Of a stretch of 64,000 nucleotides of DNA, positions 32,250 to 59,960 are shown one piece after another (the first letter of the stretch is position 1; every line of letters begins with the position of its first letter). Made by a program: the position numbers and the translations under genes. This DNA comes from Chiloscyllium plagiosum (Eukaryota), in contig NC_057717.1 in assembly GCF_004010195.1 (NCBI RefSeq), positions 106,329,127-106,393,126 on the forward strand, read 5' to 3'. The notes beneath the pieces are model-generated. The model was not told where the DNA came from. It searched no databases and saw only the letters and a list, made by a program, of their open reading frames with translations.

Positions 32250-32255
32250 TTTATT
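32250..32255 (-). promoter_or_regulatory. Candidate polyadenylation signal of gene B
   Basis: AATAAA on the minus strand ~390 nt past the stop codon, in unique AT-rich sequence. Confidence 0.4.
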
Positions 32256-32839: not shown

Positions 32840-33485
32840 CTATGAAAACATAGAAAGAAAAGATCATCAACAGTCCAGGGAAGTATATTTATTGCAAAAT
32901 GCCTGAATATTTCTAAAATCTAGTGTCCCCATGTGCTTAATCAGCTTTTTCATGGCTGTTTTCCTGCTTGTATTTTTCACCTTCTTTCATTCTTCCCACA
33001 TCACACACCATTCCTTGGCAGTCTGCTCTCAACTCACTATCTATTCTTGTTTATGTTCTGCGGGAATTACACACTGGTAAGTAAATTTAATATAATGCTC
33101 CAAACATACCGCTGACAAGCTTTCTTTTCAGCTGGTTCCAGAATTTCCAGAGTTTATAATTCTTCTCTATCTCTTACATTACTGAAAATTACATATCCTG
33201 TCTTTCTTTCAATTTTCAACCCTAAACATCCATTAGCATTTTCCCCAAGGCACTGATTAAGCTGCTGTGTTTGCATACTTCTTGCTTGTGTTTGTTTCCT
33301 GTTACCCCACCTCATGAGGAGAAATGAAGCTTAGAGATGTGTGTTTCACTCACTGATCTGCTCCAAATCTCTGCTTCATGGAGTGTGTAATGATTAAAAT
33401 CATGGCCAAGTGAATGTCATTGACAATGAGACTCTTCATTGTCATTGTTAACCTTGGCCAATCAGGGAGCTCTGGCTAACAAATG

Positions 33486-34568
33486 TTAACATAGGATTAT
33501 TTAATCCCTCCCCTCCCTTTCACTGTTTGATCACACAGCATTGCCCTTTGATGTGAAGGGCACTGCTTGTCATTGGCAACTTGGGTGTTTCCTTTCTTCC
33601 TGGTGGTGGAAACTGAATAAAGATTCGTGCACCTTGTGTCTTTCACTGTGTCTCACATTTGCACACACACACAACATGGGTGCTGGGGAAAAATAAGCAC
33701 TACTGCAGTTAGGCGGTAGTGTGGGGGTTAAAAAAAAAGAGCAGGAATATAAATAAAAGAAAAAAATTAACATAGGATTATCAATCCCTGCCCTCCCCTT
33801 CCCTGTTTGAACACACAGCATTGCCCTTTGATGTGAAGGGCACTGCTTGTCACTGGCCACTCGGGTGTTTTCTTTGTTCCTAGTGGTGGAAATTTGAATA
33901 AAGATTTGTGCACCTTGTGTCTTTCACTGTGTCTCACACCTGCACACACACACAACCTGGGTGCTGGGGAAAAAATAAGCACAACCGCAGTTAGGTGGTA
34001 GTGTAGGGGTATAAAAAAAGAATGAAAAGATAAAAAAGTTTAAAAAAATAAACAAGGGTGCCAGACATCCTGTTCACTCTGAGAAGAAACAAAATAACCA
34101 GGAGACAGTGTCAGAGATTCTGTTCACTCTGAGAGCTGGCTCTGAGGGAGCTGGATCAAAAAAAATTAACATAGGATTATTTAATCCCTGCCCTCCCCTT
34201 CACTGCTTGATCACACATCATTGCCCTCTGAGAAGGGCACTGCTTGTCACTGGCCACTCGGGTGTTTCCTTTCTTCCTGGTGGTGGAATATAAACAAAGA
34301 TTTACACACTTGTTTTTCACGGTGTCCGACACCTGCATACACACAACATAGATGCTGAGGAAAAATAAGTACTACAGCTGTCAGATGGTACTATGGGGGG
34401 AGGGGGAAAAAAGGTGAAAAAAGAGAGAAGAACATGAATGTCAGACATGCTGTTCACTCTGAGATTTAGAAAAAAAATTAACTTAGGATTCACACAAACA
34501 TGGGTGCTAAGAAATATAAGCACTATTGCAGAATTGCAATAGTGTAAGGGGAGAAAAGAAAAAAAAAT
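33486..34568 (+). repeat. Cluster of four copies of an unclassified ~270-bp hairpin-rich, A-tailed repeat inside the Gypsy 5' LTR
   Basis: Copies start ttaaca/cttaggatt at ~33486, 33767, 34166 and 34478 (last internally deleted); each ends in a hairpin, a G-run and an A-rich tail. Confidence 0.8.
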
Positions 34569-39352: not shown

Positions 39353-39685
39353 CAGGTGCACAATCCTTTCTCTGAAATGCTCAGTACAGCAGGTTTTCGG
39401 AATTCAGAATGTTTTGAATTTTGGAATAAGTGACAGTTCTATGGTGAAATTTTAAAAAATTTTACTGGAGGAGCATGACTCACTCAGTAAAACGGGACTT
39501 GAGAGAGAATTGAGGCCTGCCGGTGCTGGACCACGGCCCCGCATGTTGCGTCGAGTGGGTGTTGACTGGGTTAATTGTTTGCATGCCAAACAACATTGTT
39601 AATGAGAAAAAAACTTTACAAAAAATGCCTTTGGACTTCGGCGCTTTTCGGATTTCGTGATTTTGGATAAAGGGTTGGCTACCTG
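39353..39685. mobile_element. Tc1/mariner-pogo (Tigger-like) MITE
   Basis: Imperfect TIRs CAGGT...aatcctttctctgaaat / atttt.ggataaagggtt..ACCTG flanked by TA on both sides. Confidence 0.75.
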
Positions 39686-39708
39686 TAATAGTAATTTTAG
39701 ATTCTGAC

Positions 39709-39996
39709 CTTTGACCCTGATGTCCACTTCCTTCTTATCAATTCCATATTGATTGGCAGCTCTACCTTTATAAATTCCTTGGTGCTCTGAGGTTATGTAC
39801 GGAATGTGCAGAAATCCAGAGGGACCAATCTCAATGTTGCTGCCATTACTGGGGTTTACCCACTCTAATGTAGGTGAGGGTCTTCCATTGGACTTACAGC
39901 TTAATGTAATTTCATCACCTTCAGCAGTTTCTACTGGAACGCCTGACATGGTTTTGCTATTTACCGATATGGTCATGATTGTGTCTTGTGGTTTAT
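39709..39996 (-). CDS. Gene B exon: membrane-proximal Ig domain D6 (xKPQDT...LSCKSNGRPSP...W...HQGIYKGRAANQYG...IRVK)
   Basis: Acceptor cttttccag|AT, donor G|gtcaga, 288 nt, open frame. F-strand motif is G-I-Y-K-G (GGT) instead of Y-x-C (TGT). Confidence 0.85.
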
Positions 39997-40330
39997 CTGG
40001 AAAAGAGAAGAAAAAGATGAAAATAGGCAGGCAGACAGGATCACTGATACAGCTCTCCAACACGGCTTCAATTAACAGGATGTCTAAACCTCACCACATA
40101 TTGTGCTGTCATCTATCTTCCAACAATCATTTCAGAACAGGTGAATCTCTGCAGTCGTGTTACAGCCTGGGTCGTACTTACAGTCATCTGTTATTATGAC
40201 GGCTGTTCACAGTGAAATGCAGTCATTGTGTAAATACTAATTCAGGTTTACAGCTAGTGGGTTTCATAGTCTAAGGGTTCACACTGCTCAGAATATTCAA
40301 AGATTCAATTTCATGTAATCTGTTGCTCAT

Positions 40331-40576
40331 ACAAAATAGTTGCATTTAGAGATGAGGTTTTAGATCAGTGCTCATTTTTGACCGTGCACACATACAGTCC
40401 CCCATGCTGCATTTGAACAGATGGGATAAAGAGTATTTCTCTGCTTTCCATTTTCCCATCTTTGATCCAGACCCTCTGGGGATCTGGGTTCCCTTGCCCA
40501 TGACATGTTAAATTCTGTGATTCCCCTTCAATCCAGTTTTCTTGAGCTTTAAAGATCACTGCTTTTGCTGGTGCAT
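40331..40576 (-). pseudogene. Gene B exon: Ig domain D5, disabled (xAPAKAVI...LTCHGQGNPDP...W...GLYVCTVKNEH*SKTSSLNATIL)
   Basis: Acceptor ctttacag|AT intact. TGA at 40365-40367 falls where the N-x-x-G motif predicts GGA. The phase-1 donor reads T|atgagc rather than gt. Confidence 0.75.
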
Positions 40577-41579
40577 CTGTAAAGTTCATTCCAATCAAAA
40601 ATTAAATCAGTATACTACACGACTCAAAGTTCAAATATTCTTCAAATTCTTTCTGGTGCTCTCCAGATTTTAATATTTAGAATAAAATTGGTTTCTATTT
40701 TAAAACCCAGTGTCAAACAGTACCAAACAGTACTGAATCAAACAGTACCAGGCAAAGTAAAGCACAGGATAAAAGGTGGAATAACCTGCTCTGAATTCTG
40801 TGAAAAATGTAACATTCTGAGTGCTGCTTTTCAGAAATTTCCAATTAATTTCGTTTTCTGTTGGGATCCTGAGTAACTGAGGAAAGAGGTTATAAATACA
40901 TTTCAGAGACTGGGTTACCTTCATACAGCAATTGTAATAGGGTTTTTAAATACTGGGAGATAGACTGATACAGAGGTAATATAAAGACCAACAAAGGGAA
41001 AGTATTCCGAGACTGTTCCGGAGAATTTTCTCCAGCAGTAAGTGTCCAGACCGATAAGAAAGGAGGAACTGCTCGACCTGGTCATGGGAATGGGCCAAAT
41101 GAAGCAAATGTCAGTGGGAGAACACGGAGGGCTCAGTGATCATCGTATCATCAGTACAATGGCAGAAAATGACATTGGTCAATCCAGAGTAAGAATATTC
41201 AACTGGGGGAGAGTGGCCTTCAGTAGGGCAAGAACACAGCAGGATCAAGTGAACGACAACCAAAGGTTCATGGGAAAATCAATGGCTGAACAAAGAGCTG
41301 TCTTCAGAGAAGAAATGGTCTGGGCACAGTCAAAGTAAATTCCCACAAATGGGAAAAGGGAGACAAACAAATGCAGAGCTCCCTTGATGTCAAAGGAGAT
41401 GGATATTCAGAAAAGGAAGTGTGTTTATGACATGTGTCAGGTAGTAATTGCAGTTAAGAACCAAGTACAATACAGAAGGTTCAGAAGTGATGTTAAAAAG
41501 TAAAGTGAGAAACAGATTGTGTGGACTGACATTGAACATAAAGAAAATCTGGATATCACTGACAGGTACATCTAAAATA

Positions 41580-43228
41580 AAAACACAGAACATTATAGCG
41601 CAGTACAGGCCCTTCGGTCCTGGATGTTGCGCCAACGTGTGAAACCAATCTGAAGCCAATCTAACCTACACCAGTCCATTTTCATCCATATGTTTATCCA
41701 ATGACCATTTAAATGCCCTAAAGGTTTGCAGGGTGTTCCATGCCCCTACTACTCTCTGAGTAAAGAAACTACTTCTGACATCTGTCCTATATCTATCACC
41801 CCTCAATTTAAAGCTATGTCCCCTCGTGCTAGCCATCACCATCCAAGGAAAAAGACTCTCACTGTCCATCCTATCTAACCCTCTGATTATCTTATATGTC
41901 TAAATGAAATCATCTCTCAACCTTCTTCTCCCAAAGGAAAACTGCCTAAAGTCCCTCTGCCTTTCCTCGTAAGACCTTCCCTCCATACCGGACAACATTG
42001 TTGTAAATCTTCTCTGAAAATTTTCCAAAGCTTTCACATTTTTCCTATAATGCAGTGATCAGAACTGTATGCAATACTCCAAACATTGCCACACCACAGA
42101 TCTGCACAGCTGCAACATGACCTCATGGCTCCAAAACTCAATCCCTCTACCAATAAGAGCTAACATACTGTATGCATTCTTAACAACCCTATCAAATTGG
42201 GTGGCAACTTTCAGGGATCTATGTACATGGACACTAAAATCTCTGCTCATCAACACGACCAAGAATCTTACCATTAGCCCATTACACTGTAATCCTCTTG
42301 CTCCTCCCAAAGTGACTCACCTCACACTTTTCCGCATTAAACTCCATTTGCCACCTCTCAGCCCAGCACTGCAGCTTATCTATGTCCCTCTGTAACCCGC
42401 AACATCCTTCAGTACTAGTCACAACTCCACCAACCTTAGTGTCATATGCAAATTTACTAACCCATCATTCTGCGCCCTCATCCAGGTCATTTATAAAAAT
42501 GACAAACAGCAGTGGCCCCAAATCAGATCCTTGTGGTACACCTGTAGTAACTGAACTCCAGGATGATCATTTCCCATCAACCACTACCCTCTGTCTTCTT
42601 TCAGCTCACCAATTTCTCATCCAAACTGCTAAATCACCCTCAATCCCATGCCTTCATATTTTCTGCAATAACCTAGTGTGGGGAATCTTATCAAACGCCT
42701 TACTGAAATTCATATACATGACATAAACTGCTTTACCCTCATCCTCCTGTTTAGTCACCTTCTCAAAGAACTCAATAAAGTTTGTGAGGTACAACCAACC
42801 CTTCACAAAACCATGTTGACTATCCATAATCAACTTATTCCCTTCTACATGATTATAAATCCTATCTCTGATATCCCTTTCCAACACTTTACCCACACCA
42901 AAGTAAGGTTCACTGGTCTACAATTACCAGGGTTGTCTCTACTCCCCTTCTTGAACAAGGGGACATTTGCTATCCTCCAGACTTCTGGCACTATTCCTGT
43001 AGACAATGCCAACATAAAGATCAATGCCAAAGGGTCTGCAATCTCCTGCTTGGCTTCCCAGAGAATCCTAGGATAAACCCCATCTGGCCCAGGGGTCTTA
43101 TCTATTTTCACACTTTCCAGAATTGCTAACACCTCCTCCTTGTGAACCTCAATCCCATCTGGTCTCGTAGCCTGTATCTCAGTATTCTCCTTGACCACAT
43201 TGTCTTTTTCCAGTGTGAATACTGATGA
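41580..43228 (-). mobile_element. 5'-truncated CR1 (RT + 3' end) nested in the older CR1
   Basis: KTPGPDG, QHGFVKG, FSKAFDK, FFTQRVV motifs. Confidence 0.88.
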
Positions 43229-43717
43229 AGAGGGTGGTGTAAGGGGGATTCGGGACAATGAAAGGGGCAAGTGGCATGGCTGAGGTGGTAAACTATTTTT
43301 CTATTTCTGTCTTTACCAAAGAGGTAGATGCTGCCCAGGCCATGGTGACAGAGGAGGAAATTTCATCACTTTGAATGGTTTAGATTTGATAAAGAGGAGC
43401 TTTTGGATAAGCTGTCAATATCTAAAGGTGAAAAGTCCCAGAACCAGATGAAATGCTTCCAAAGACCTTGGAGGAAGTGAGAATTGAAATTGCAGAGGCA
43501 CTAGCAATAATCTTTCAATCTGGCCTGGATTTGAGGACAGTGCTGGAGGAGTTTAGAATTGCAAACCTTTTTCAAAAAAGATTGAACCAGCAATTACAAA
43601 CTAATCAGTTAAACTTTGGCAATGGGGACACTCCGAGAAGCAATTGCTGATAAAATAATTAATCGTCACATGGAAATACTTTGTAGATGTGGAAGAATCT
43701 GCATGGATTTTTTTTAG

Positions 43718-43920
43718 AGGGTCACTTTAGCTCAGTTGGCTGGATGGTTGGTTTGTGAAGCAGTGTGATACCAACAGTCTGGATTCAATTCCCATCACCA
43801 GCTTTGGTTACTATGAAAGTCTCTCCTTTTCAGAATGTCGCCTCATCAGGAGCATGGTGACCATGAGTCATCTCTCTCTAAGGGGAGAGCAACCCTTTGG
43901 TCTGGTTAGACAATGTTGAC
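43718..43920 (+). mobile_element. tRNA-derived SINE
   Basis: A box tagctcagttgg and B box ggattcaattcc. Confidence 0.6.
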
Positions 43921-44309
43921 ACAATAATATCAACAACAAAATGAAGGGAAAGTGTGTCTAAGTAACTTGGAGTAGTTTCAAGACTAATAGAAATGGTTGA
44001 TGAGGACTAGGTTGTTGATGTGGTGTATAGGGTTCCAAAAGGTGATTGATACTGTACCACACAACAAATGTTTGAGGAAAGTGATAGGTCATGGAATAAA
44101 AGGGACTATACTAATGAGGATACAAACTTGGCTGAGTGACATGAAACGGAGCATGACAGTTAATGGATACTTGTGGTAGAGTTTCAACTGTACCAGTTGG
44201 AAGGCTTGTGGTAGAGTTCCCCACCTCTAATTTTATGGTTGTAAATGTTCTAGATCTTGTTGTGTAAGGGACAATTCCAAAATGTGTTCATGTCACAAAA
44301 TGTGGAAGC

Positions 44310-44787
44310 ATCCATGTCAGATGCCATATCACTTGCCCTTCACTCCTTCCTAGAACATCTTGACACCAAGAACAGCTATGTAAGAATCCTACTCTTTGAC
44401 GACAGTTCAGCCTTCAACACTATTATCCCCTCGAGACTGATTCCATCTACCAGGCCCGCGGTCAAGGAAAGGCCGGCAGCATTCTCAAAGATTCATCCCA
44501 CCCTGGCAATGTTTATCTACAACCTCTACCATCGGGGAGAAGGTACAGAAGCCTGAACACATGCACCAGCCAGTTTCGAAACAGCTTCTCCCCTATTGTT
44601 GTTAGAATACTGAATGGACTCCCAAACTCTTAACATTCACCTGTATCTGTGTTTTTCTTTTTGCTGCTATTTACCTATTATTTACTTATCTGTGCTACTT
44701 AACTATGTGATCTGCCTGTATTGCTCGCAAGACAAAGCTTTTCACTGTGCCTCGATACATGTGACAATAAATTCAATTCAATTCAAA
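44310..44787 (+). mobile_element. Internally deleted Rex1/Babar-type LINE
   Basis: DAISLALH...EHLD...[18 protein letters not shown] motif; aataaa followed by (TTCAA)n tail. Confidence 0.7.
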
Positions 44788-45361
44788 CATTGTAGACTGT
44801 GAGGAGAACAATGTCAAGGTCATTTATAAGGCTGAAGTAGGCAGATGGGTGACAGAGGCAGTGGCACATTGGTATACAGTTGGCAACAAGTTGTCCTGGG
44901 AGGCTCCAACATTGACTGTGGACCCCAGAAAATGACACAACATTTGGTCAAACATAGACAAGGAAACCTCCTGCTGATGACCATAATCCCCTCCTGTTCT
45001 GAATTTGTACTCCTCCATCTTGAACATCATTTAGAGGAAGCACTGAGGGTAGCCGGGTGCAGAATATACTGTGGGTGGGACACTTCAATGTCCATTGCCT
45101 AGAGTGACTCGGCAGCATCACCACTGACTGAGCTGTTCAAGTACTAAAGGACATTGCTGCTAGACTGGGTCTGTGGCAGGTCAAGAGAGAACCAACAAGA
45201 GGAACAAGCAAACTTGACCTCATCTCCACCAATTCGCCAGCTCCAGATCAGTCTCTGCAAGACAGTGATCACCATGCAGTCCTTGTGGAGACAAAATGCT
45301 GTTTCACAGTGGGGATACCCTTCATCGTGTTGTGGGCTCCATTACTGTACTAAATGGGATA

Positions 45362-45660
45362 CATGACTTGGAGGTGCCAGTGTTGGACTGGGGTGGACAA
45401 GGTTAAAAATCACAAAACACCAGGTTATAGTCCAACGGGTTTATTTGGAAGCACTAGTTTCAGAGCGCCGTTCCTTTATCAGGTGGTTGTGGAGAATAAG
45501 ATCATGATTACAGAATTTATAGCCAAGGGAGTCCAGTGTTACAGAGATGTGATACATTAAACAATTTTAGGTTAAGTCTTTCATCTGTTAGAATGGGATA
45601 TGCCGGTTTCTGTTCTTTGATATGTAAAACCCAGAACTTCTTTTAAATTACATAAATTTC
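45362..45660 (-). mobile_element. Penelope-type terminal fragment (same family as 60188-61056)
   Basis: Shares aaaaatcaca..acaccaggttatagtccaac; decayed hammerhead on the minus strand. Confidence 0.65.
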
Positions 45661-45799
45661 AATAAAATTACAATTGTCTTGGACCCCCCTCGCCTCAGCG
45701 CCAAGAACTTGTGCTGCTAAGCGAGTGTAGTAACCAGAGTGCAACAGTTTCCCCACATGAAGAGAGTTCTTGCACAGGCACCTTCCACACCGTCAGGAA

Positions 45800-46110
45800 T
45801 GTACTGTGGCTCCATGGTTATCATTGATGCCTCAGCACCAGGGACCCGGGTTCGATTCCAGCCTCAGGTAACTGCCTGTGTGGAGTTTGCATATTCTCCC
45901 CATCTCTGCATGGGTTTCCTCCGGGTGCTCCGGTTTCCTCCAACAGTCCAAAGATGTTCAGGTCAGGTGAATTGGCCATGCTAAATTGCCCATAGTGATA
46001 GGTGCATCAGTAGGGAGTTGGGAAATGGGTCTGTGTGGGTTACTGTTCAGAGGGTCGGTGTGGATTGTTGGTCTGAAGGGCCTGATTCGCAACTATAGGG
46101 AATCTAATCA
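45800..46110 (+). mobile_element. HE1-type SINE, diverged
   Basis: B box gggttcgattcc, HE1-type body, aatctaatc tail. Confidence 0.8.
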
Positions 46111-48267
46111 TGAAGTTCAGGACCCTTACGGACAGTGATCGACCGGAACACCATGTCGCCATCATTGCTCAGGAACGCAGGTGCGATGATACTGACATCA
46201 CCATACTGAGTGAAACCTGGTAGGCAGGGGAAGGACAGCTCAGGGACAAAGGTAGTGACTACACCTTCTTCTGGAAAGGCAAGGCTGAAGAAAAGTTCCC
46301 ATCCTGGAGTCGGCTTCACCATCAAAAATGAACTGGTGCATGAACTGAAAGGCTCCTCCTTCGGAATAAATGAATGCCTCATGACACTTTGATTCCCCCT
46401 TGATGGGTATTAGTATGTCAGGATAGGCAGTGCATATACACCAAATCTCAAAGCAGCAGATGAGAAGGAGAAATTCTACTCCAACCTTGACAAATCTCTC
46501 TCACGGGTCCCTGCAGCGGAGAAACTTATCAACCTTGGCAACCTCAGTGCCAGAGTCAGCAAAAGTGCAGAGGTCTGGGACAATGCGATCAGGAAAGAGG
46601 GAGCAGTGATGCAAAACTCCAATGGCACCCTTTTCCCGATCAAATGCTGTGAACACAACCTCCTCATCATTCACACACCGTTCCACCAAAGGGACAAATA
46701 CAGGACAATGTGGCAACACCCCCGCTGGAAACACTGACGCCTCCTTGACTATGTCATTGTCAGATGAGGGATCGAAAAGATGTTAGAATTACACATGCCA
46801 TGACCACAGCCAGCGACCTCTGGACAGACTGTCACCTGATCCAAGCCAGGATCAACATACTTCCAGACCCGCAGCAGAGGAGACAACAGAAGCAATTCCA
46901 AAAACAGTTTAACATTGAGGCACTTAAAGACCGGGAGAAAATAGCCTCAGACAATCAACTCGTCTCCACAAACCTAGCGAGTCTCAGCGATACCATGTCA
47001 CGGGATCCCAACAGTCTCTGGTCCACCCTTAAGACTACCATTATCACTGCCTGCAAAATGCCAGTCAGCCAATCCACCAGGAAACACCAGGACTGATTTG
47101 ATGAGAATGATCTGGAGATTAAGGAACTACCAAGCTGGAAGCGCATGGCATTTCTGAGTGAAAACAAAAACTGTATATTCAAAAATGGAAAGGCAGGTTT
47201 ACAGGTGCTGAAGGCTGAGGAACAAAACCAAACCCACAACATAAAAAATGGGTGGTGGGTGGAGAAACACTGGAGATCCAACAAATGGCCAACAGCCATG
47301 GTGTGATGGGTTTCTTCTGCGTTGTCAAGACGACATACAACCAAACAGCCAAGGCCCCACTCCACTGCTGGCCAAGGACAGAGTGACTCTTATCAAAGAT
47401 AAAGAAACCATCAAAAAGTGTTGGGAGAAGCACTTCAGAGACCTCAAGCAGGGCTCTGTCATTGATCTGAGCATTCTTGAATGCATCCTACAGCATTCTA
47501 CACACCATGGGCTCAGCAATACCCCAGCCCTGCACGAAATAGAGAAGACTGTCCGCCATCTTAAGAACAACCAGACAGCTAGAGGAGACAGTACACCCAC
47601 TGAGGTATTGAAATGCAGAGGCAAAGACCTACTGTTGCAGTTGACAGCCTTGTCTGCCTTATCTGGAACGAGGAGAGCATCTCAGAACTGCTCCGAGATG
47701 CCACAGTTCAGAGTATTTCCAAAAAAGGGAACAAGTCCAAATGTGGTAACTACAGAGGAATCTCCCTGCTGTTGACGGCAAGGTCCTCCACAAGTATTTC
47801 CTCCCTGTGGCTGAGGAACTCCTCCCGGAGTCACAGTGTGGTTTTCACCACGGAGGGGCACAATGGACATGGTTGTCACTGTGCGACAGCTGCAGGAGAA
47901 ACGCAGAGACAAGAACCTCCCCTGGACATGGCTGCCTTCGACCCTACAAAGGCCTTTGACACTGTCAACTGGCGAGCATATGCAGGGTCCTTTTCTGTTT
48001 TGATTGTACCATGAAGTTTGTCACCATCCTTCACCTGCTCCAGGACAAAGTGGAAGTCAATGGTCAAAGACCATCAAAAGTGGAGGAGGAGCATCCAGAA
48101 AGGTATTGAGCATCTCCAGCCTTGTATTGGCAGAAAATGGAAGCCAGGCCACAACATCAAAAGCAGTGCGCTGCCACACCAACACTCCACCCACCCCTTC
48201 CCCAGGTCACCACCTACCTGAGCGGTGATGAGAATCGTCGTCGTCGTCGTCGTCGTCGTCGTCATCG

Positions 48268-48319
<52 letters not shown>

Positions 48320-48355
48320 TTGCTAGGAACCACCAACGATGATGGGCCACCTGTT
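46111..48355 (+). mobile_element. Decayed RTE (BovB-like) LINE
   Basis: Endonuclease fragments (LSET..GEGQL...YTFFWKG, GVGFTIKN, WTDCHL) and RT fragments (KKGNKSKCGNYRGISLL, FDPTKAFDTVN). Confidence 0.85.
48235..48318 (+). repeat. Compound microsatellite (CGT)n(CAT)n
   Basis: Seen directly; near the RTE 3' end. Confidence 0.95.
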
Positions 48356-49017
48356 GTGAGATGTAGTCAAGGGCACTCACCTCCATAGTTACACTTTAGG
48401 AAGGGAGTGATAGCCTGGTGGATAATGTAAAAGAGAGTCATTAAAATGGGACAAGGGATGAGTGGCTTCCCTTATGTGGAAAGAATGGAAAAGTTGGGAT
48501 TCTGCCAATCAGGCAGTGAGGGTCAAGAGAAGTTCTGATAGTCATGTTCAAGATAATGAACCAATTGTAGACAAATAAAGAGGAGTTTTTAGTGGCAAAA
48601 GGTTTGATAATCATGAGACACAGATTTAAGGTGATTAGAAAAGGAACAAATGTGATGTGATTGTTTTTTTAAAGAAAGCAGTTGATTGTTTTCTAGCATG
48701 AATAGTGGAAGCAGATGCACTAGTGTCTTTCACAGGAGAATTGGAAAAATATTTGAAGGGGAAACACATACTCCCATGATTGCACTCTGTGGCACAATGC
48801 ACCGGGGTAATAATGGACAGTGTCCTCACATGTCCTGACCCCAGGATCTGTATCCCTTTGGTCTCAGTGACAAAGGAGCTGCTGCAAGGCAGTCCCTGTG
48901 TGAGGAGACCAATTCAAATTGGTTCGGACTAAGAGGAAAGTTGGGATGAGGATTTCATTGTCTCCATTTTGAAAAAAAATCCCACTGACGTTTTGTGAGG
49001 AAAGTAATGCTACTTAC

Positions 49018-49305
49018 ACAGGACATGGAGGGTTTCAATCTGTTGTTTTATAACAGGGCTTGTCATTGACTGATCTTGAAGTTTCAGTTCAGCTTCACAG
49101 ATATACTGCTGTCCATCCAGCTTAACTTGAGCTTCTACTGTATGAGAGATAGTGAGCCCAGTACTGCTTGATCCATTCACTAATGTGTCATTTCCTTTCT
49201 TCAGTCTGAGTTCAAGATCCCCTGAGACTTTTAACACAAGGCATGTAATATTAACCAGATTTCCTTCCTGGCTGGTTGGTACTTGGATTTCAGGGGAAGA
49301 GAAAG
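49018..49305 (-). CDS. Gene B exon: Ig domain D4 (xFSSPEIQVPTSQEGNLVNITC...DGQQYICEAEL...LHVL)
   Basis: Acceptor tattatttttag|CT, donor T|gtaagt, 288 nt, open frame, both cysteines present. Confidence 0.85.
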
Positions 49306-50073
49306 CTAAAAATAATAGAAAGATACTGTTAGAAACATTGTTGTATCTAGTAGTCCCTCAGTGTGAGGTTAATAACAATGAAACAAAGGCAGATTGCATT
49401 TCGTGCTCTTGCTCATCCTCTGCTTCATTGCTGTATCAGGGAGATGTACAAAGCCCTACATCATCTTTCCATGTTCCTTCAGTGTCTGCAGTATCTTAGT
49501 CAACATTCATTCCTGACCCAAACTCACCAAAAATGTATTCTGCTCGTTTCTGTTTGTAGAATCCTGAAATCTGTATTTATTTTAATGCAGATTTATTTAT
49601 TACCGCCTGTTTCTTCCACACGGTATATTCCTGATTGGTGTATGTTTTTGCACCCCTGCAGTTTTTAGGGTACATTGGTTGTTTAAACATTTAAACATTC
49701 TCTTGTGATCCTGGAATACTAAGTGTGAGTAACACTCACCTATGAGCAGCGCATACAATGTCAATCACATTATCTCAGGATCTCAGAATATCTCGAGTCA
49801 TTAAGACTTTCTCAGAATGCTTTTCATTGACAGAGGGTCATATAGAATATATGGCACAGAAACAGACCATTCCAACTAATTAGCCAATGTTTATGCTTTA
49901 CTCAACCAAGTGTCTGAGTATACAAACATTTCCACAAGCTTCCCAATTTGTTACTCAATGAAAAGGATTTTATTACTGAAAGTGGTGGAAATGCTGACAT
50001 GTTGTATTGTTGACAGTGATGAACTATCAGAATGTTGTCTGATTTTAAACTCCCCCACAACCAGAATTCTTAC

Positions 50074-50367
50074 CATACACCTCAATGAAAGCACTATTAT
50101 TCTTTGAGGGAATTGATGGATATTTCTCAAAATCGGCCATACAGACGACTTCCAACAGACCAGATTCCTGTGGTGTCCATGCTGCTGTTATTCGGACAAT
50201 GTTGGAATTTGGCCTTGTGGTATCTGAGTTCAGTTCCACACCATCCTGAAACCATCTTACTCTCATCTTCTCAGTAGGATAGACACTTGAGACCTCACAT
50301 GTTAATGTGACCTCTTGCTTCACTTCTTTGGGTCTTTTGTCCAGGATTCTAGGCTGATCCATGAAAG
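50074..50367 (-). CDS. Gene B exon: Ig domain D3 (xFMDQPRIL...LTCEVSSVYP...VRW...VVCMADF...IEVY), non-canonical acceptor
   Basis: Open Ig frame with both cysteines and the tryptophan; donor G|gtaaga. The expected acceptor reads ttataC|ct instead of AG, and an in-frame TGA lies just upstream. Confidence 0.75.
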
Positions 50368-50609
50368 GTATAATTCAGACAAGAAATTCACTTCATTTTA
50401 ATTTGCTGCAGTGTGTTTCAGTTTATAATGGACAGAGTGGGAAACTGGCCAGTGTAGGTATTGGACAATACACCACCCCAGGAATATATCACATTCACTC
50501 ATAGTCATAAAACTGGAGTCATCTGCAGGAGGCCATAGTGCATTTTGAGAGGGAACTGGCAATGCCAATCACGGTGTGCGATTGGTAAATTTGTCTAAGT
50601 ATTTTTGAC

Positions 50610-50950
50610 AATTCATTCATAGGATAAGGGCATTACAAGCTGGACAGCATTTATTACCCATCCCTAATTGCTCAGAGGGCAGTTCAGAATTAACCATGTT
50701 GCTCTAGGTCTGGAGTCACATCTGGGCCAGACAAGGAAAGGATGGCAGTTTCCTTCCCTGAAGGACATTAGTGAACCAGATCAGTTTGTACACCAATCAG
50801 CAATGGATTCATGGTCATCGTTGGACTGTTAATTCCAGATTTTGTTTTTGTTAGATTCAGATTCCACTATGGCAGGATTCAAACCCAGGTCATGGGAACA
50901 TTATCTAGATCTCTGGATTAAGGGTCCAGGGATAATATGTTTAGGCCAGC
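50610..50950 (-). mobile_element. tRNA-derived SINE (family of 14700-15035)
   Basis: Reverse-complement similarity to 14700-15035. Confidence 0.65.
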
Positions 50951-51134
50951 ACCTCAGTTCAAAACCACAAAACAGCTCATCTATTTTATTTTTAAATTAA
51001 TTCTTGCTACTTTTCAACTATTAAGGCCTTTGACCATCGTGTATGTCAGTTTCGTGTATGTCAGTCACTCTGAGCAGTACAGGCTGATGCACTCCTGATT
51101 TACCTTTGCTTTGATCTTTACTTGCATCTGTCTA

Positions 51135-52720
51135 GAATATCCTTCTTAAAGGGGAGGATGAGCAGCTAGAGGCCCTGGTACACATCCATACCAGTGACAT
51201 AGCTCGGAAAAGGGATGAGGACCTGAAAAGTGAATATAGGGAGTTAGTTTGGAAGCTTAAAGGCAGGATGAGCAGAGTAGTAATCTCAGGTTTGTTACTA
51301 GTGCCACGGGCTAGTGAGGCTAGAAATAGAGAGTAAGTGCAGATGAACACGTGCCTGCAGAGCTGATGTCAGAGGGGGGGCTTCAGATATGTGGGTCATT
51401 GAGACACGTTCTGGGGAAGGTGGGATCTGTACAAGGAGGACGGGTTGCACCTGAACTGAAGGGGCATCAGTATCTTGGGCAGCAGGTTTGCTAGAGCTCT
51501 TGGGGAGGGCTTAACTAGATTGGCAGAAGGATGACAACTAGATCTATGGATCAGAGATGAGGTAGCTGGTGAACAGGCAAACACAGCATGCCGAGAGTCT
51601 GTGAGGAAGGATAAACAGTTGATAGGTCAAAGTTTCAGTCAGTGTGATGGGTTGACATGTGTCAATTTTAACGCAAGAAGTGTCAGGAATAAGGATAATG
51701 AACTTAGACCATGGATTTGTACTTGGAGCTACAATGTGTAGCCATTATGGAGATTTGGATATCACATGGGCAGAAATGGTGTTGGATGTTCCACGATTTA
51801 AAATGTTTCAAAAGGAAATAGAAAGAGGTAAAAGAGGTGGGGGAGTGACATTGCTAAGCAGGGATAGTATCACAGCTGCAGAAAGGGAGGGCGTTGAGGA
51901 GGGTTTGTCTACAGAGTCAGTATGAGTGGATGTCAGAAACAGGAAAGGAGCAGACACTTTATTGGGAAGTTTCTAGATAACCCCCCCCCCCCCTCCCCCA
52001 ACAGCAGCAGAAACACAGAGGAGCAGATTGGGAGGCAGATTTTGGAAGGTGCAGAAACAACAGTTGTTGTCATGGGTGACTTCAACTTCCCTAATTTTGA
52101 TTGGAACCTCCTTGGTTCAAATGGTTTGGATGGAGCAGACTTTGACAGGTGTGTCCAGGAAGGATTCCTGACTCAATATGTAGATAGGCTGATTAGAGGG
52201 GTGCTTGGCAATGAATCAGGTCAGGTGTCGGATCACTTAGTGGGAGAGCATTTCGGTGACAGTCATCACAACTCCCTGACCTTTACTGTACTCATGAAGA
52301 GGGATAGGAGCAGGGTTTTTGAGAAAGTATTTAGTTGGAGGAGGGTGAATTAAAATGCTATTAGGCAGGAACTGGTGTGCCGAAATTGGGAACAGATATT
52401 ACAGGGAAATGCATGAGAGAAATGTAGCGGTTGTGGAGGGAGCACTTGCTGCAAGTTCTGGATTGGTTTGTCCCACTGAGGCAAGGAAGGGATGGTAGGT
52501 TGAAGGAACCTTGGATGACAAAGGATGTGGAACATTAAATCAACAGGAAGAAGGAAGCGTACTTAAGGTTGAGGAGGCAAGGATCAATCAGACAGGGCTT
52601 TAGAGGTTTACAAGGTAGCCAGGAAGGAACTGAAGGTTGGACTTAGGAGATCTAGAAGGGGGCATGAAAAACCTTTAGCAGGTAGGATTAAGGATAACAC
52701 TAAGGCATTCTACACTTACT
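51135..52720 (+). mobile_element. CR1 fragment (ORF1 esterase end + endonuclease)
   Basis: DGLHLN-type and MGDFNFP motifs. Confidence 0.85.
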
Positions 52721-52903
52721 TATATTATTAAGACTCAGCTTGGCAAAAAAAGAAAGTTATTCAAAATACTGTAGGCCACCACTATCAAACTATGGTTTGC
52801 ACATGCTCTGGCTGACTTAAAGCAAACATTTACATTTACTGGATATTTGCACCATAATACAAGATAAGTTTTTTTTGTAATATCTTGAGCAATTGGAACT
52901 CAC

Positions 52904-53218
52904 CGTAAGTTTGCAGTGTGACAGAAGAGTTTGTGATTGACTTTGTGGTATTAGAGCCCAAGTCCACTTCAGCCAAGCAGGTGTACTCCTGTCCATCATC
53001 TGATCGACTCGCAACGAAATTGAAGACATTTCTCAACCTTTTATCTTCATCCGGAAGACCTAGTTCACCTGTGGAATCTCTCTGGACAATCTCACTCCCT
53101 CTCAGCCATGTGAGAATGAGTTTGTTGTTTGCATAGACTCTTGGGCCAATGCACTCCAGACGATATGTTCTGTTAATCTCCAGTACTTCAGGAAGTACTG
53201 TAATGCTTATCTCTCGAT
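52904..53218 (-). CDS. Gene B exon: ICAM D2-like Ig domain (xREISITVLPEVLEINRTYRLEC...LTWLRG...GQEYTCLAEVDL...VTLQTY)
   Basis: Acceptor ctcctttaacag|AT, donor G|gtgagt, 315 nt, open frame. C...W-L-R-G...Y-T-C-x-A-E-V-D-L resembles ICAM-1 D2 (LLRG...FSCRTELDL). Confidence 0.85.
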
Positions 53219-53538
53219 CTGTTAAAGGAGAATCACAGTTAACAAGTTTCACTGAAATAGTGTACCTGAGGACCATGTTCTATCTCCTCACACATTTACT
53301 CAGATACATAAGAGATGTAAGTGTGTATGTATTCAACAAAAGGTTACTAAAATACTTGAACAGAGGCCAGTATCCTGTCACCAAGTCACCCTTTATTTAC
53401 ACATGGAGACTAATCCATCTCCGTCAGGGCCAGCTCTCAGAGTGATCAGAACCTCTGACACTCCTGTTTATACCTGTCAGCCACAGCTCCCTGATTGGAC
53501 CAGATAAAGAGCCCTAATCAGGGAACTCATTCTATGAT

Positions 53539-53771
53539 ACCCAGAAACAAAAATCAAGATTGCTGGAAAAACTCAGCAGGTCTGGCAGCATCTATGGAGA
53601 CAAATCAGACCTAATGTTTGGGGTCAAGTGACCCTTTCCCTATTCTGAGGAAGGGTCATTTGACAGGAAATATTAACTCTGATTTCTCTCCACAGATGCT
53701 GCAAGACTTGCTGAGCTTTTCCAGCAATTTTGATTTTTTTTCTGATTTACACCATCTGCAGTTGTTTCAGT
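53539..53771. mobile_element. Palindromic Penelope-derived insertion (family 2) with 9-bp TSD
   Basis: TSD ttctatgat (53530-53538, 53772-53780); inverted arms; decayed core CTGAGGA-agggtca..tgac..GAAA. Confidence 0.7.
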
Positions 53772-55184
53772 TTCTATGATGTCCACCTGGCTGACCTCAT
53801 TACAATTATTACATCCCTCCCTCTTTATTTTCCTCTTTAGGTGGCAAAGGCATTGAGACAGTGACATCCACCTCAGATTTTGTAGTACCTTAAATGCTTA
53901 ACGGAGACAGAGACCCCATGGGTTTTTGAACAGTCAGAAAGGCAGTGAAGAGCAGGGCACATTTTGCTCCTGCAATGTTTGCAGCTTTCATATGATCCAT
54001 GTACTTGTTCAGGACTGTTGCACCTACCCAAACCTTAGACATCACTGGACCTGACCTTACATTGACTGTGACTCCAGCGCATTCAAGGCCATTCCCACGG
54101 TTCCTACACCAAACTTTGAGCCCTAAAGTAAACTGTCTCTCTCATTTAGTGGAGCATTGTGTCCAGCATTGATGTTTCTGATACCATTTCACCCTCCCCT
54201 CAAGACTAGGAAGATCAGGTTTAACCTGTTGTGGAGTCTTCTACCCATTAGCAACTCTGCTGGAGCTATCCCTGTAGTTGCATGAGGGATGGGTCGATAG
54301 TCAAACAGGAACTGGGACAGTTTGGTATCGAGTGAAGCTGTAGGCTATTTCTTTTAGCCTGCCTACAAAATTTGAAATGTTTTTTTCTGCCATACCATTG
54401 GATGATGGAATGGCTCAGAGCTGTCTTATGTGATGCATATCATTCGGCTTTAGGAAATAGTCAAGTCCCCTGCTTGAAATGATAGTCTGTTATCTGTGAC
54501 CAACATCTCGAACAGTCCACGTATTGTAAAATATTTGCAGTACTCTGTCATCATCCATGTGTAAGACAAATTAACTCTACACATATCCAGCCATTTTGAG
54601 TGGATATCCAAAAAGACTAAGGACATTGAGCTCATGACAGGAGCCGCATAGTCAAAGTGTAACCGAGTCCAGTGTTTACCCAACCATTTGCACAAATGTG
54701 GGGAGTGCTTTTGGTCATTTTTGTCCTTGTGTGTATTGCCCCACCAATGCAGCTTTGTCTGTATCCAATCCTCCAATCCAATAACTTCTCATCAATGTCT
54801 TCATTTTGGAAACCCTTGTACACCCCTGTGGAGTTCAGTCAGTATCTTGGTGCTGACCCTTGCTACGGACAACCACTCTTGCTCCCCATAATAAAATGCT
54901 GTCCTCGACTGTGATCTGATCTCTCTAGGTCCAGAAACATTTCAATTCTGATTGTGATGGCCCTTTGGCTTCCCCCCCATCACCACCAGCTGGTTCAGTT
55001 TTGCCAGGACTGGATCTTTGTCCAGAGTCTGATATTGTCAGTTGTGACTGGAAGTGTGTCCAGAAAGTTTAATACCAGAGTGGACTCTTCTTGTAGTGGT
55101 CCCACCGGTGGTGTACCTTCCAGCAGGAGGCGGTTCAGTGCAACTACATTTGCTCCTTGGCCTCCCAGACAGTGTTCCAACCTG

Positions 55185-55494
55185 TAGATTAGATTAGATT
55201 ACTTACAGTGTAGAAACAGGCCCTTCGGCCCAACAAGTCCACACCTACCCGCCAAAGCGCAACCCACCCAGACCCATTCTTCTACACCTAACACTACGGG
55301 CAATTTAGCATGGCCAATTCACCTAACCTGCACATTTTTGGACTGTTGGAGGAAACCGGAGCACCCAGAGGAAACCCACACAGACACTGGGAGAATGTGC
55401 AAACTCCACACAGTCAGTCGCCTGAGGCAGGAAATGAACCCGGGTCTCTAGCATTGTGAGGCAACAGTGCTAACCACTGTACCACCGTGCCGCC
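55185..55494 (-). mobile_element. HE1-type SINE, full length
   Basis: tRNA-like head at 55494, (TAATC)n tail at 55185. Confidence 0.88.
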
Positions 55495-55558
55495 AATATA
55501 ATTAGAGCCCACCACTGAATTCAGTCTGAAGCTGTGAGCAGCACTGCCTTGTCCTCTT

Positions 55559-55769
55559 CAGTTAAAAATCACACTACACCAGTTTATAGTCCAACAGGTT
55601 TATTTGGAAGTACTAGCTTTCAGGTAACTAGTGGGGCAGGATCATAATTTGTAGCTATAAGGGGCAGCACTCTGAAAGCAAGTACATCCAAATAAATCTG
55701 TTGGGACTACAACCTGGTGTTGTGTGATTTTTAATGTAGTCCTCCCAGTCCAATACTGACACCTCCACA
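55559..55769. mobile_element. Palindromic Penelope-type insertion (family 3) with 12-bp TSD
   Basis: TSD ccttgtcctctt (55547-55558, 55770-55781); inverted arms. Confidence 0.7.
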
Positions 55770-56133
55770 CCTTGTCCTCTTTAAGTAGACCTAGAAGGGT
55801 TTGTGGTCTGTTAATATTACAAATTTATGTCTGTCAAGGTATTGGTGGAACATCCTGACTCCAAACGTGACTGCTAAACCTTCATTCTCCATCAGGGCAT
55901 ACAGGGAAGCACCGCATGTCAGTACCAGATCCTGTTTAGAATCTTAATGTTTCTTACAGGAATTACCTGTTTCTTGGCTTCCCTGAAAGCTACGGCTTGG
56001 CTACATGACCATTTCTGAGGCTGACCCTTTTTAAAGAGTTGATTCCAAAGGTGCCAGGATGGAGGCCACATTGTGTATCAACTTTCCGGAATAGTTCACC
56101 AGCCCAAGGAAAGACCGAAGCTCTGATACTGAG

Positions 56134-58360
56134 GTGGGAATAAATTGGGAACAGGGAAATGCGTTCCTGAAGAAGGGGCTTATGCCCGAAACGTCGATTC
56201 TCCTGCTCCTTGGATGCTGGCTGACCTGCTGTGCTTTTCCAGCAACACATTTTTCAGCTCTGATCTCCTGCATCTGCAGTCCTCACTTTCTCCCAACAGG
56301 GAAATGCAGAACAGAAATGTGGAAGTTGTTTAGGAAGCACTTGCTGATAATACTGGATAGCTTTGTATCATTGAGGCAAGGAAGGGATGGTAGAGTGAAG
56401 GAAATTTGGATGACAAGAAATGTGGAACATCTAATCGAGCGGAAGAATGAACCTTACTTAAGGTTGAGGAGGCAAGGATCAGACAGGGCTCTAGAGAGTC
56501 ACGAGGTAGCCAGGAAGGAACTGAAGAATGGACTTAGGAGAGCTAGAAGGGGGCATGAACATGCTTTAGCGGGTTGGATTAAGGATAACACCAAGGAATT
56601 CTACACTTATGTGAGGAACAAGAGGATGGCCAGTGTCAGGGTAGGGCTGATCAGGGATAGTGGAGGAAACTTGTGCCTGGAGTCAGAGGAGGTAGACTGA
56701 GGACCTTGATGAATACTTTGCTTCAGTATTCACTACTAAGGGGGTCCTTCTCATTTGTGAGGACAACGTAAAACACGCTGATATGCTTGAACAGGTTGAT
56801 GTTAAGAAAGAGGATGTGCTGAAAAGTTTGAAAAACATAAGGATACATAAGTCCCCTGGGCCAGAGATGGCATATACCTAAAGTCAGTACAGGAAGCAAG
56901 GGAAGAGGTTGCTGTGTCTTTGGCGATGAAGTTTGCGTCCTCACTATCCAGTGAAGTAGTACTAGATGACTGGAGGGTGGCAAATGTTATTCCCTTGTTC
57001 AAGAAAGTGAATAGGGATAACTCTGGGAATTACAGATCAGTCAGTCTTATGTCTGTAGCAAGCAAATTATTGGAGAGGATTCTGAGAGACAGGACTGATG
57101 ATTACTTGGAAAACCATAGTTTCATTAGAGATAGCATGGCTTTGTGAGTGGTGGGTCATGCCTCACAAGCCTTTTTGAAGGATGTGACAAAACACATTGA
57201 TGAAGGTAGAGCAGTGGATATGGTGTATATGGATTTTACCAAGGCATTTAAAAGGTACCTCATGATAGGCTCATTCAGAAAGTAAGGAGGCATGGGAAAC
57301 AGGGATATTTGGCTGTCTGGACACAGAATTGGCTGGCCAATAGAGGACAGAGGGTGGTAGTTGATGGACAGTGTTCAGCCTGGAGCTAGGTGACTAGTGA
57401 TGTTCCATAGGGATCGGTTCAGGGACTCTGCTCTTTGTGATTTTTATAAATGACTTGGTGAGGAAGTAGAAGAGTGGGTTAGTAAGTTTGCCAATGACAT
57501 GACTGTTTGTGGAGTGGTTGATAGTTTGGAGGGCTGGTGTAGTTGCAACGGGACATTGACAGGATGCAGAGCTGGGCTGAGAAGTGGCAGATGGAGTTCA
57601 ACCTGGAAAAGTATGAAATTATTCATTTTGGAAGTTCAAATTTGAATACAAAATACAGGATTAAAAGCAGGATTCTTGGCAGCGTGGAGGAACAAAGGAA
57701 TCTTGGGGTCTATGTCATAGATCCCTCAGATTTGTCACCCAAATTGATAGGGTTGTTAAGAAGTTACACGGTGTGTTGCCTTTCATTAGCAGGGGGATTG
57801 AGTTTAAGAGCTGTAAAGTTGTGCTGCAGCTCTGTAGAGCCCTGGTTAGACCACATATGGAATATTGTGTTCAGTTCTGGTCGCCTCGTTATCGGAAGGA
57901 TGTGGAAGCTTTATAGAGAATGCAGAGGAGATTTACCAGGATGCTGCCTGGACTGGAGGTCATGTCTTATGAAGAAAGGTAGAGAGTGCTAGGGCTTTTC
58001 TCAATGGAGTGAAGAAGGATGAGAGGTGACTTGATAGAGGTGTACAAGACGATGAGAGGCATAGATAGAGTGAGTAGTCTGAGAATTTTTCCAAGGCCAG
58101 AAATGACTATCATTAGGGGCATAATTTTAAGGTGATTGGAGATGTCAGAGGTAGGTTATTTACACAGAGACTGGTGAGTGTGTAGAGTGCACTGTCAGCA
58201 ATGGTAGTAGTGTCAGATATATTAGGGACATCTAAGTGACTCTTGGATAGGCACATGGATAATAGTGAAATGAAGGGAATGTAGGTTAGTTTGATCTTCC
58301 AGGTCGGCACAACATCGAGGGCTGAAGGCCTGTACTGTGCTGTACTGATCTATGCTCTCT
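56134..58360 (+). mobile_element. 5'-truncated CR1 (RT + 3' UTR)
   Basis: ORF2 motifs throughout. Confidence 0.9.
56163..56294 (+). mobile_element. Short Penelope terminal insertion with hammerhead motif and 13-bp TSD
   Basis: TSD aacagggaaatgc (56150-56162, 56295-56307); ttcCTGAAGAaggggcttatgcccGAAACGTCga. Confidence 0.8.
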
Positions 58361-58364
58361 GTAA

Positions 58365-59520
58365 ATCAAGTGAGACACAATTTCTCAACCACCAAGCCAT
58401 GTTGACTATCCCTAATCAGTTTTTGCCTTTCCAAATGCGTGTAGATCCTGTCCCTCAGAATCTCCTCCAACAACTTGCCCCCCATTGACGTAAGGCTCAT
58501 CAGTCTATAATTCCCCACTTTTTCCTTACTTCCTATTCTTAAATAATGTCACCACATTAGTCAACCTCCAGTCTTCCAGTGCCCCACCCTATTGATGATA
58601 CAAATATCCAGACTGTAGGGATTCTATCTCAGCAAGGGACCCTGTAAACTGTTTCGTGGCTCCCCACAAAGTTCTGCGATACACTTGATCAGGTCTCAGG
58701 GATTTATCTGCCTATATAAATTTAAGACCTCTAGCACATCTTCTTCTGTAATGTTAACTCTCTCCAAGACATTTGCCAAAGCTATCACTTGTCCCCCTTT
58801 TGCCCTCCTGATTTCCTTCCTATTGCCCTCATACTAGTCTAGGGATTCACTCGATCCCAGCTGTCTATACCTGACATATGCCTGCTTTTCCTAACCAGAG
58901 CCTCAATTTCTCTACTCATCCAGCATTCCCTACACCTACCAGCCTTGCCCTTTGCACTAACAGGAACTGTCTCTGAACTCTTATTACCTTTTTTTTAAAG
59001 CCCTTACACTTTCCAACCATCCCCGTACTGGAAATAATGATCTCCAATTAATCTTTAAAAGTTTCTCTGTAATACCATCAAGATTGGCCTTGCCCTAACT
59101 TAAGACTTTAACTTTTTGATCAGTTCTATACTTTTTTATAACTGTTTTAAGACAAATAAAATTATGATCACTTGCTTCAAAGTGCTCCTCCACTGACACC
59201 TCAGTCACTTGCCCTGCTTTGTTTCCTAACAGGAGGTCAAATATTACTCTTTCTCTAATAGATACATGCACATGTTGAATAAGGATGTTTTCCTGTACAC
59301 ACTTAAATTCCTCCCCATCTAGGCACTTAACACAATGAGAATCCTAGTCATTTCGCCATTCCTGATGAAAGGCTTTTGCCTGAAATGTTGATTCTCCAGT
59401 TCCTTGGATGCTGCCTGACGTGCTGTGCTTTTCCAGCACCACACTCTCTAATCTCCAGCATCTGCAGTCCTCACTTTTGACTATGAGAAAACCTAGTCAA
59501 TGTTTGGAAAGTTAAACCTG
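58365..59520 (-). mobile_element. Old CR1 ORF2 fragment
   Basis: Similar to 5470-6700 with deletions. Confidence 0.75.
59351..59482 (+). mobile_element. Short Penelope terminal insertion with hammerhead motif
   Basis: cattcCTGATGAaAGGC(tttt)GCCTGAAAtGTTga; imperfect TSD atgagaa..cctagtca. Confidence 0.75.
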
Positions 59521-59632
59521 TTTCTATCATCCTTTCAGATAGTGACTTCCAGTTACCCACCATCCACTCTCTGGTGAAGAAAATATGCCTTAAATCACCT
59601 CTCCTGAGAGGATAAATTTCTTCCCATCTCCT

Positions 59633-59960
59633 TTAGATTAGATTCACTACAGTGTGGAAACAGGCCCTTTTGCCCAGCAAGTCCGCACCGAACCTCTTAA
59701 GAATAACCTACACAGACCCAGTCCCCGACCCTACATTTACCCTAACTAATGCACCGAACACTATGGGCAATTTAGCATGGCCAAGTCACCGAAACTGCAC
59801 ATCTTTGGATTGTGGGGGGAAACTGGAGCACCTGAAGGAAACCCACGCAGACACAGGGAGAACGTGCAAACTCTACTTAGACAGTCACCCAAGCCTGGAA
59901 TCAAACCCAGGTCCCTGGCACTGTGAGGCAGCAGTACTAACCACTGAGCCACCATGCCAC
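59633..59960 (-). mobile_element. HE1-type SINE
   Basis: tRNA-like head and (TAATC)n tail. Confidence 0.85.

Follow-up and report, generated by a model that had tools for sequence, protein, structure and literature searches.

A tandem ICAM-like paralog of the bamboo shark Chiloscyllium plagiosum is probably a decaying duplicate rather than a shortened receptor

Gene B and its place in the ICAM family

This work concerns a 64,000-nucleotide (nt) stretch of the genome of the bamboo shark Chiloscyllium plagiosum (RefSeq assembly GCF_004010195.1, contig NC_057717.1, positions 106,329,127 to 106,393,126), referred to here as the window. It holds, on the minus strand, a gene with five immunoglobulin (Ig) exons and a transmembrane (TM)/tail exon, which we call gene B, and, further downstream, the leader and D1 exons of a paralog, gene A. 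An earlier note on the window had described lesions in two Ig exons of gene B that can be skipped without loss of frame, and had argued that the gene may be shortened rather than dead. The parts of gene B are as follows.

53218-52904, minus strand: Ig exon D2, 315 nt, phase 1-1, open, with AG/GT sites
50367-50074, minus strand: Ig exon D3, 294 nt, phase 1-1, open frame
49305-49018, minus strand: Ig exon D4, 288 nt, phase 1-1, open, with AG/GT sites
40576-40331, minus strand: Ig exon D5, 246 nt, phase 1-1; a cassette exon in paralogs, broken in gene B
39996-39709, minus strand: Ig exon D6, 288 nt, phase 1-1, open, with canonical sites and one Cys
32839-32643, minus strand: last coding exon (TM helix and short tail), intact and open; one copy in the window
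32642-32250, minus strand: predicted 3' untranslated region (UTR), with ATTAAA (32535) and AATAAA (32255)

All five Ig exons in the window are phase 1-1 with lengths that are multiples of 3, as the earlier note had it, and D2, D4, D6 and the TM exon are indeed open and bounded by AG/GT splice sites. Skipping both D3 and D5 does keep the frame, with the junction codons GCT, TAT and GGT that had been given.

Gene B is an ICAM-like tandem paralog. Its tandem stalk-type Ig domains are recognizable from the match of D3 to Pfam ICAM1_3_5_D2 (30.1 bits; cut-off, 27.5), from the homologs of D2, and from the solved structures related to its closest full-length paralog. A homolog search with D2 found 53 elasmobranch proteins with ICAM-, VCAM- or hemicentin-like names; the top matches, at 95-96% identity, came from Chiloscyllium and Hemiscyllium. 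The closest full-length paralog, P0014 (C. plagiosum XP_043550978.1), is 94-98% identical to gene B over D2-D5, and comparison with the PDB matched P0014 to ICAM-5 (1.8e-25) and ICAM-1 (8.6e-17). A PDB search with D3 alone was uninformative, with antibody constant domains among the matches listed. The single TM helix and short cytoplasmic tail of the family are encoded by 32839-32643; no other hydrophobic phase-1 exon was found in the interval from D6 to gene A. Of the Cys pair that ICAM proteins have in each Ig domain, D2 to D5 keep both members and D6 keeps one.

Neither a leader nor a D1 exon of gene B was found in 53219-64000 by tblastn with 67 N termini (best E value, 0.016; search confined to the window); this does not point to loss, since a D2 match is likewise lacking in the 9.6 kb past the D1 of gene A. 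Protein searches returned no public protein with the D2, D6 or tail of gene B, which is a weak negative, and the tail searches gave only paralogs or distant relatives.

Lesions in D3 and D5

The three lesions described in the earlier note are all present in the window.

50369-50368, minus strand: D3 acceptor, which reads AC and not AG
40367-40365, minus strand: premature TGA in D5, at a position that is Gly70 in 11 of 11 other copies
40330-40329, minus strand: D5 donor, which reads AT

The TGA sits 322 nt upstream of the last exon junction, and a stop that far before the last junction is, by the usual rule, a likely trigger of nonsense-mediated decay (NMD). Near the lost D3 acceptor, the two closest AGs that follow a pyrimidine-rich run (50355 and 50350) are out of frame, as are 10 of the 13 AGs in the range scanned; the three in-frame AGs (50327, 50324 and 50315) lie in purine-rich sequence, with 4-7 pyrimidines per 18 nt. 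A cryptic donor, TTT/GTATGA, is found 2 nt upstream of the dead D5 donor and out of frame; therefore, D5 need not be skipped. Rescue by U12-type AT-AC splicing was considered, with the U12 donor consensus as the standard of comparison, and rejected: the two odd sites belong to different introns, the D2-D3 intron having a GTGAGT donor and ending in AC and the D5-D6 intron starting with AT (ATGAGC) and ending in AG.

The placement of these lesions is at chance level. When three lesions were placed at random by exon length, the probability that all fell in Ig exons was 0.68, that they fell in at most two exons was 0.45, and that both held was 0.35. Because every Ig exon is symmetric, frame symmetry cannot discriminate between a shortened and a dead gene. 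This calls for caution more widely: in genes with one exon per Ig domain, lesions in Ig exons always land in "skippable" exons, and frame symmetry alone says nothing about survival.

Changes at invariant sites in all five Ig exons

For each domain, an alignment was made with every distinct copy found in 77 retrieved proteins (64 copies of D2, 24 of D3, 24 of D4, 11 of D5, and 44 of D6), and columns invariant among them were compared with gene B, a protein-level proxy that is distinct from the ratio of nonsynonymous to synonymous substitution rates. Gene B alters 6 of 124 invariant columns, with at least one change in each Ig domain.

53132-53130, minus strand: D2 Pro29 to Ala, in a column invariant in 64 copies
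within 50367-50074, minus strand: D3 Thr56 to Ile, in an invariant column
within 49305-49018, minus strand: D4 Asn25 to Lys, invariant in 24 copies; a sequon is removed
within 49305-49018, minus strand: D4 Ala60 to Val, invariant in 24 copies
40367-40365, minus strand: D5 Gly70 to stop, the lesion above, which completes the set of six
39766-39764, minus strand: D6 Cys77 to Gly (GGT), at the Y-x-C cysteine of strand F, which is present in 44 of 44 other D6 copies

In alignments with the solved neurofascin and contactin structures, Cys77 of D6 takes the place of the Y-x-C cysteine of their I-set domains. As controls, 36 distinct hemiscylliid copies were each left out in turn, and these gave a total of 3 invariant-column changes. 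The exons that a shortened message would keep, D2, D4 and D6, carry 4 invariant-site changes in 3 copies, which differs from the hemiscylliid controls (Poisson P = 1.3e-4) and from all elasmobranch copies (Poisson P = 0.015). Kept and lesioned exons are affected alike (4 of 71 versus 2 of 53 invariant columns; Fisher P = 1.0).

Contrary to the earlier claim, the damage is thus not confined to D3 and D5; D2 P29A, D4 N25K, D4 A60V and D6 C77G all change invariant sites. In a receptor shortened by pseudoexons the remaining exons should be conserved, and here D2, D4 and D6 have four changes, the same rate as in D3 and D5. Relaxed constraint, as in an unprocessed pseudogene, is what the Ig exons display: 1-2 invariant-site changes per exon compared with 3 in the 36 controls, for the five Ig exons, the TM exon having no ortholog in the set. 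Gene B is also an intron-containing tandem copy with inactivating changes. Counts of synonymous and nonsynonymous changes were tried as a test and rejected, as intact paralogs too differ mostly by amino acid changes (19 exon letters, from 30 of 134 rows).

Domain architecture and evolution of related proteins

Joins between domains were counted in 76 related proteins with domain matches. D3-D4 occurred in 38, D4-D5 in 17, D4-D6 in 15, and D2-D6 in 34, the last count taking in more distant D6-like domains. The D2-D4 join was found in 1 of 76 (P0018, a "hypothetical protein" model) and the D2-D4-D6 architecture in 0 of 76. Loss of D3 with retention of D4 is therefore rare in the family. For D5, exon-level shortening in this ICAM-like family is real: P0017 and P0056 are isoforms X1 and X2 of C. 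punctatum, and D5 is their sole difference. D5 is thus optional, and the D5 lesions alone could be harmless. Relatives also include pairs with alternative last exons (P0054/P0055, P0070/P0071, and P0024/P0072) and forms with the layouts D1-D2-D3-D4-TM and D1-D2.

The C-terminal half of the gene B tail is closest to P0031 of Stegostoma (25 of 32 residues identical), a protein that keeps D3 and has no D5. The last exon as a whole looks mosaic, its N-terminal TM half being nearest to paralogs of the same lineage (P0014, 23 of 32) and its distal half to P0031.

Trees were built from 23 hand-picked proteins and the window (9609-9875 for D1; 52905-53216 for D2). The D1 tree grouped sequences by paralog type across species, with two such groups (support, 97/94 and 99/97). 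The D2 tree grouped them by lineage: Stegostoma (95/94), Heptranchias (96/86), and Hemiscylliidae (89/91, the group not starred). Since D1 groups by paralog and D2 by lineage, these sequences suggest that the stalk is under concerted evolution, with diversified ligand-binding tips and tails. No dedicated paper on shark ICAM clusters was found among the titles and abstracts listed, and supplements to shark genome papers may include the locus. The concerted evolution suggested for the stalk may be a more rewarding subject than gene B itself.

Sequencing-run contigs over gene B

Contigs from 4 of 24 listed runs, X1 (genome-sized DNA), X2, X3 and X12, were aligned to 39500-53400; such contigs collapse near-identical copies, drop rarer variants, and show presence only. 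The listed runs also include four rows from organisms B and C, with small shares (0.05-0.12), and two raw single-cell runs. X2, X3 and X12 behave as RNA, with no depth in three bins of 46460-47851 where X1 has depth. Spliced joints were seen in X2 and X12, and a loose end of an X3 contig at the start of D2 reads like the end of a D1 exon. The joints, among 15 of 120 listed, were D2-D3 in X2 and D3-D4, D4-D5, D5-D6 and D4-D6 in X12, where D4-D6 had a depth of 110 compared with 191 for D4-D5. D2-D4 was absent from the joints listed, and cover over D4-D6 was slight or nil in X2 and X3; given the limited listing and the nature of such contigs, neither point counts as evidence. The X12 contig over D5 matches P0014 at all listed sites, including Val18, which is unique to P0014 among five D5-bearing hemiscylliid proteins; the X12 contig over D4 carries the Ser33 letter of P0070/P0071, whose models join D4 to D6. 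Because the exon contigs mostly carry the letters of paralogs, no spliced join could be assigned to gene B.

At the level of single sites, the D6 Cys-to-Gly change is present in an X1 contig (39583-39845; depth, 2.8) that agrees with the window at every letter. At 53132 and 53062 the four runs, the DNA run among them, gave only nonwindow letters, as did both covering runs (X1 and X12) at 49229 and 49125. Positions 50368-50369 are without cover among the listed contig pieces.

In X2, X3 and X12, contigs also run from D3 into the D3-D4 intron (49277-50103), where a reading frame continued from D3 ends after 9 codons, with polyadenylation signals at 49974, 49601 and 49586. A paralog may here produce a soluble form with three domains, or the intron may be retained.

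Probable transcription of the last exon

The last-exon region (32150-32900), sampled as 77 words, was present at shares of 0.48-0.94 in 16 of 24 listed runs, all from one organism. Contig totals for four of the 16 runs were 2.2-3.0 Gb, and those for ten, from three studies, were 70-160 Mb. None of these runs is labeled as RNA in its record, a blank that weighs neither for nor against transcription. The shares in X2, X3 and X12 were 0.87, 0.84 and 0.68, near the 0.80 worked out for the exon plus UTR. These word shares, together with the RNA-like behavior of the same three runs on the upstream exons, indicate that the last exon of gene B is probably transcribed.

A second tail exon lies downstream.

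22190-22101, minus strand: remnant of an ICAM-type cytoplasmic tail, truncated, with an in-frame stop and no TM segment

LINE-like (long interspersed nuclear element) sequence stands where the TM half of this tail would be expected. A decayed second tail exon fits ongoing turnover in the cluster.

Interpretation

We consider it probable that gene B is a young duplicate in decay, likely still transcribed, rather than a working receptor of reduced length. The stalk exons of the cluster may have been homogenized by gene conversion or repeated duplication. Gene B would have lost selection after its last homogenization with its neighbors and then gathered changes evenly, decaying while its promoter probably still fires. 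Inclusion of D5 would bring in the premature stop and make NMD of the message likely, splicing at the nearby cryptic acceptors of D3 would shift the frame, and any D2-D4-D6-TM message would encode a membrane-proximal Ig domain with an unpaired Cys, predicted to be destabilized. The earlier note had left a choice between a young pseudogene and a shortened ectodomain. Of the two, the pseudogene is the better fit; the case for "shortened rather than dead" falls on the symmetry shared by all Ig exons, on the damage to the kept exons, including the D6 Cys, and on the lack of D2-D4-D6 among the 76 relatives. If so, gene B is an ordinary decaying paralog.

Several observations weigh against this conclusion. 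D2, D4, D6 and TM are without a stop, frameshift or splice lesion across 1,088 nt, the last exon is undamaged, and 0.48-0.87 of its 77 words are present in 10 transcriptome-sized runs from the three studies. The controls were models annotated as intact, and for many of them the set also includes a close ortholog, so that their leave-one-out counts are lowered, whereas it lacks both the ortholog of gene B and the gene A stalk of this species. Intact paralogs, too, differ mainly by amino acid changes (5 of the 6 listed letters that cannot be assigned to gene B), so that counts of the two kinds of change do not discriminate. None of the three named lesions was seen in a listed read contig, and the sole listed X1 contig across 40367 has GGA, with a depth (3.9) close to that of a single copy; this contig may be from a paralog, because all X1 contigs over the neighboring 40392 also differ from the window. 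Finally, the "private" Thr31 of D3 also occurs in an X2 contig that splices D2 to D3.

Of the alternatives, the one that survives best, although we regard it as unlikely, is that gene B is a working shortened ICAM in which D3 and D5 are pseudoexons, the mRNA runs D1-D2-D4-D6-TM, and D6 folds without its disulfide, along the route of pseudoexon 3 in KIR2D. It has in its favor the preserved frame, the canonical sites on the kept exons, a last exon that is intact and probably transcribed, and the optional nature of D5, visible in the 15 relatives with D4-D6, in the isoforms P0017/P0056, and in the X12 D4-D6 joint. KIR pseudoexon 3 (as described in PMC3504360) and the skipped isoforms of mouse Icam1 (as described in PMC10215618) are precedents. 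The X12 joint, however, is explained by a paralog, as its D4 contig has the Ser33 letter of P0070/P0071; the closest tail match, P0031, keeps D3; and four invariant-site changes in the kept exons, the D6 Cys among them, together with the lack of D2-D4-D6 in 76 relatives, speak against it. A bolder form, to which we likewise give little credence, has gene B as a live ICAM caught in the act of shortening after escape from gene conversion, its free membrane-proximal Cys being one that could join two four-domain D1-D2-D4-D6 receptors in a covalent dimer. Were the shortened form real, it would give KIR2D pseudoexon 3 a nonmammalian counterpart and would show, midway, how shark ICAM architectures of 3 to 6 domains arise.

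Less likely still, and doubtful in our view, is that the lesions are specific to a single haplotype, or that the assembly is a mosaic of nearly identical paralogs, so that other individuals would have an intact or less damaged gene B and the null allele would be polymorphic. The GGA contig of X1, the exclusively nonwindow letters at 53132, 53062, 49229 and 49125, and the X2 contig that has the window-type Thr31 and splices D2 to D3 are in keeping with this, and the window contains 7 N gaps and a 99.8% tandem duplication. Against it, contigs drop rarer variants, several near-identical copies exist, and the X12 D5 has the letters of P0014; the D6 Cys-to-Gly change is present in X1; and a dozen scattered substitutions with no exon indel are unlike consensus error. 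Very improbable is a gene of which only the ends are kept, its last exon spliced to D1-D2 or D1-D2-D4 (with the Cys-less D6 skipped) or serving a paralog upstream as its alternative last exon: the frame is preserved when D2 or D4 is joined to TM, both alternative last exons and the layouts D1-D2-D3-D4-TM and D1-D2 occur among relatives, and the last exon is present in many transcriptome-sized runs, but D2 and D4 carry three invariant-site changes, and D6 has canonical splice sites with nothing to force its skipping.

Gene A and other features of the window

Gene A, the neighboring paralog, is represented by two exons.

10624-10564, minus strand: gene A leader exon
9877-9608, minus strand: gene A D1 exon, intact, matching Pfam ICAM_N at 33.7 bits, above the cut-off

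ICAM proteins begin with an ICAM_N domain that has two disulfides and the integrin-binding acidic residue; in the neighbor of gene B this domain is found at the domain level. The leader and D1 of gene A have no residue unseen in other copies, and three homolog searches gave no matching C. plagiosum protein for gene A.

Upstream of the gene B exons lies a tandem duplication, 61034-62450 and 62583-64000, with a 1,549-bp period and 99.8% identity over 1,417 bp. On the minus strand of both copies, motifs that resemble the NF-kB consensus form a cluster (62035 and 61945; 63584 and 63494) and are followed by a donor-like GTATGT. The duplication at 61034-64000 could be an inflammatory promoter or enhancer of gene B or an assembly duplication.

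Two near-identical minus-strand open stretches, 26224-26559 and 27082-27321, flank an N gap at 26586-26820; the pair (26224-27321) is likely a duplicated start of a retroelement open reading frame 1 or an assembly overlap. The introns are otherwise rich in fragments resembling LINEs, short interspersed nuclear elements and long terminal repeats. Simple and tandem repeats in the window are as follows.

33486-34320: 280-bp tandem repeat
31296-31458: 40-bp minisatellite
48235-48319: compound trinucleotide repeat
3-470: 30-bp purine-rich array

Comparison with known systems

Gene B resembles the ICAM family (ICAM-1, -2, -3 and -5 and the elasmobranch ICAM5-like, ICAM1-like and VCAM1-like models) in having one exon per Ig domain and a type I membrane layout. 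Unlike ICAM models of the P0014 type, it has a stop codon, two dead splice sites, a lost D6 Cys, and a tail of its own.

Human lineage III KIR genes omit pseudoexon 3, so that the receptors have two Ig domains and not three, according to the account in PMC3504360. An Ig exon that is retained in the gene and left out of the mRNA, giving a shorter ectodomain, is the mechanism that the earlier note proposed, and gene B does have disabled Ig exons with frame-preserving neighbors. The difference is that the skipped mRNA and a working receptor are established for KIR2D, whereas no skip joint could be assigned to gene B and its kept domains are damaged. In mouse Icam1, as PMC10215618 describes it, messages that skip entire Ig exons encode shorter ICAM-1 that is functional, and residual isoforms persisted when exon 4 or 5 carried an insertion; there the gene is intact and the splicing alternative, whereas the changes in gene B are genomic and reach the kept exons.

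Like an unprocessed pseudogene in a birth-and-death immune cluster, gene B has kept its introns, stands in tandem with a paralog, and has several inactivating changes. Unlike a typical one, its last exon is intact and probably still transcribed. A fitting category is the "Uncertain Loss"/"Lost" class of TOGA. In its description of TOGA2, bioRxiv 10.64898/2026.06.30.735536 gives "Uncertain Loss" three readings, early gene loss, base errors, and single nonconserved exons, and these cover the case of gene B.

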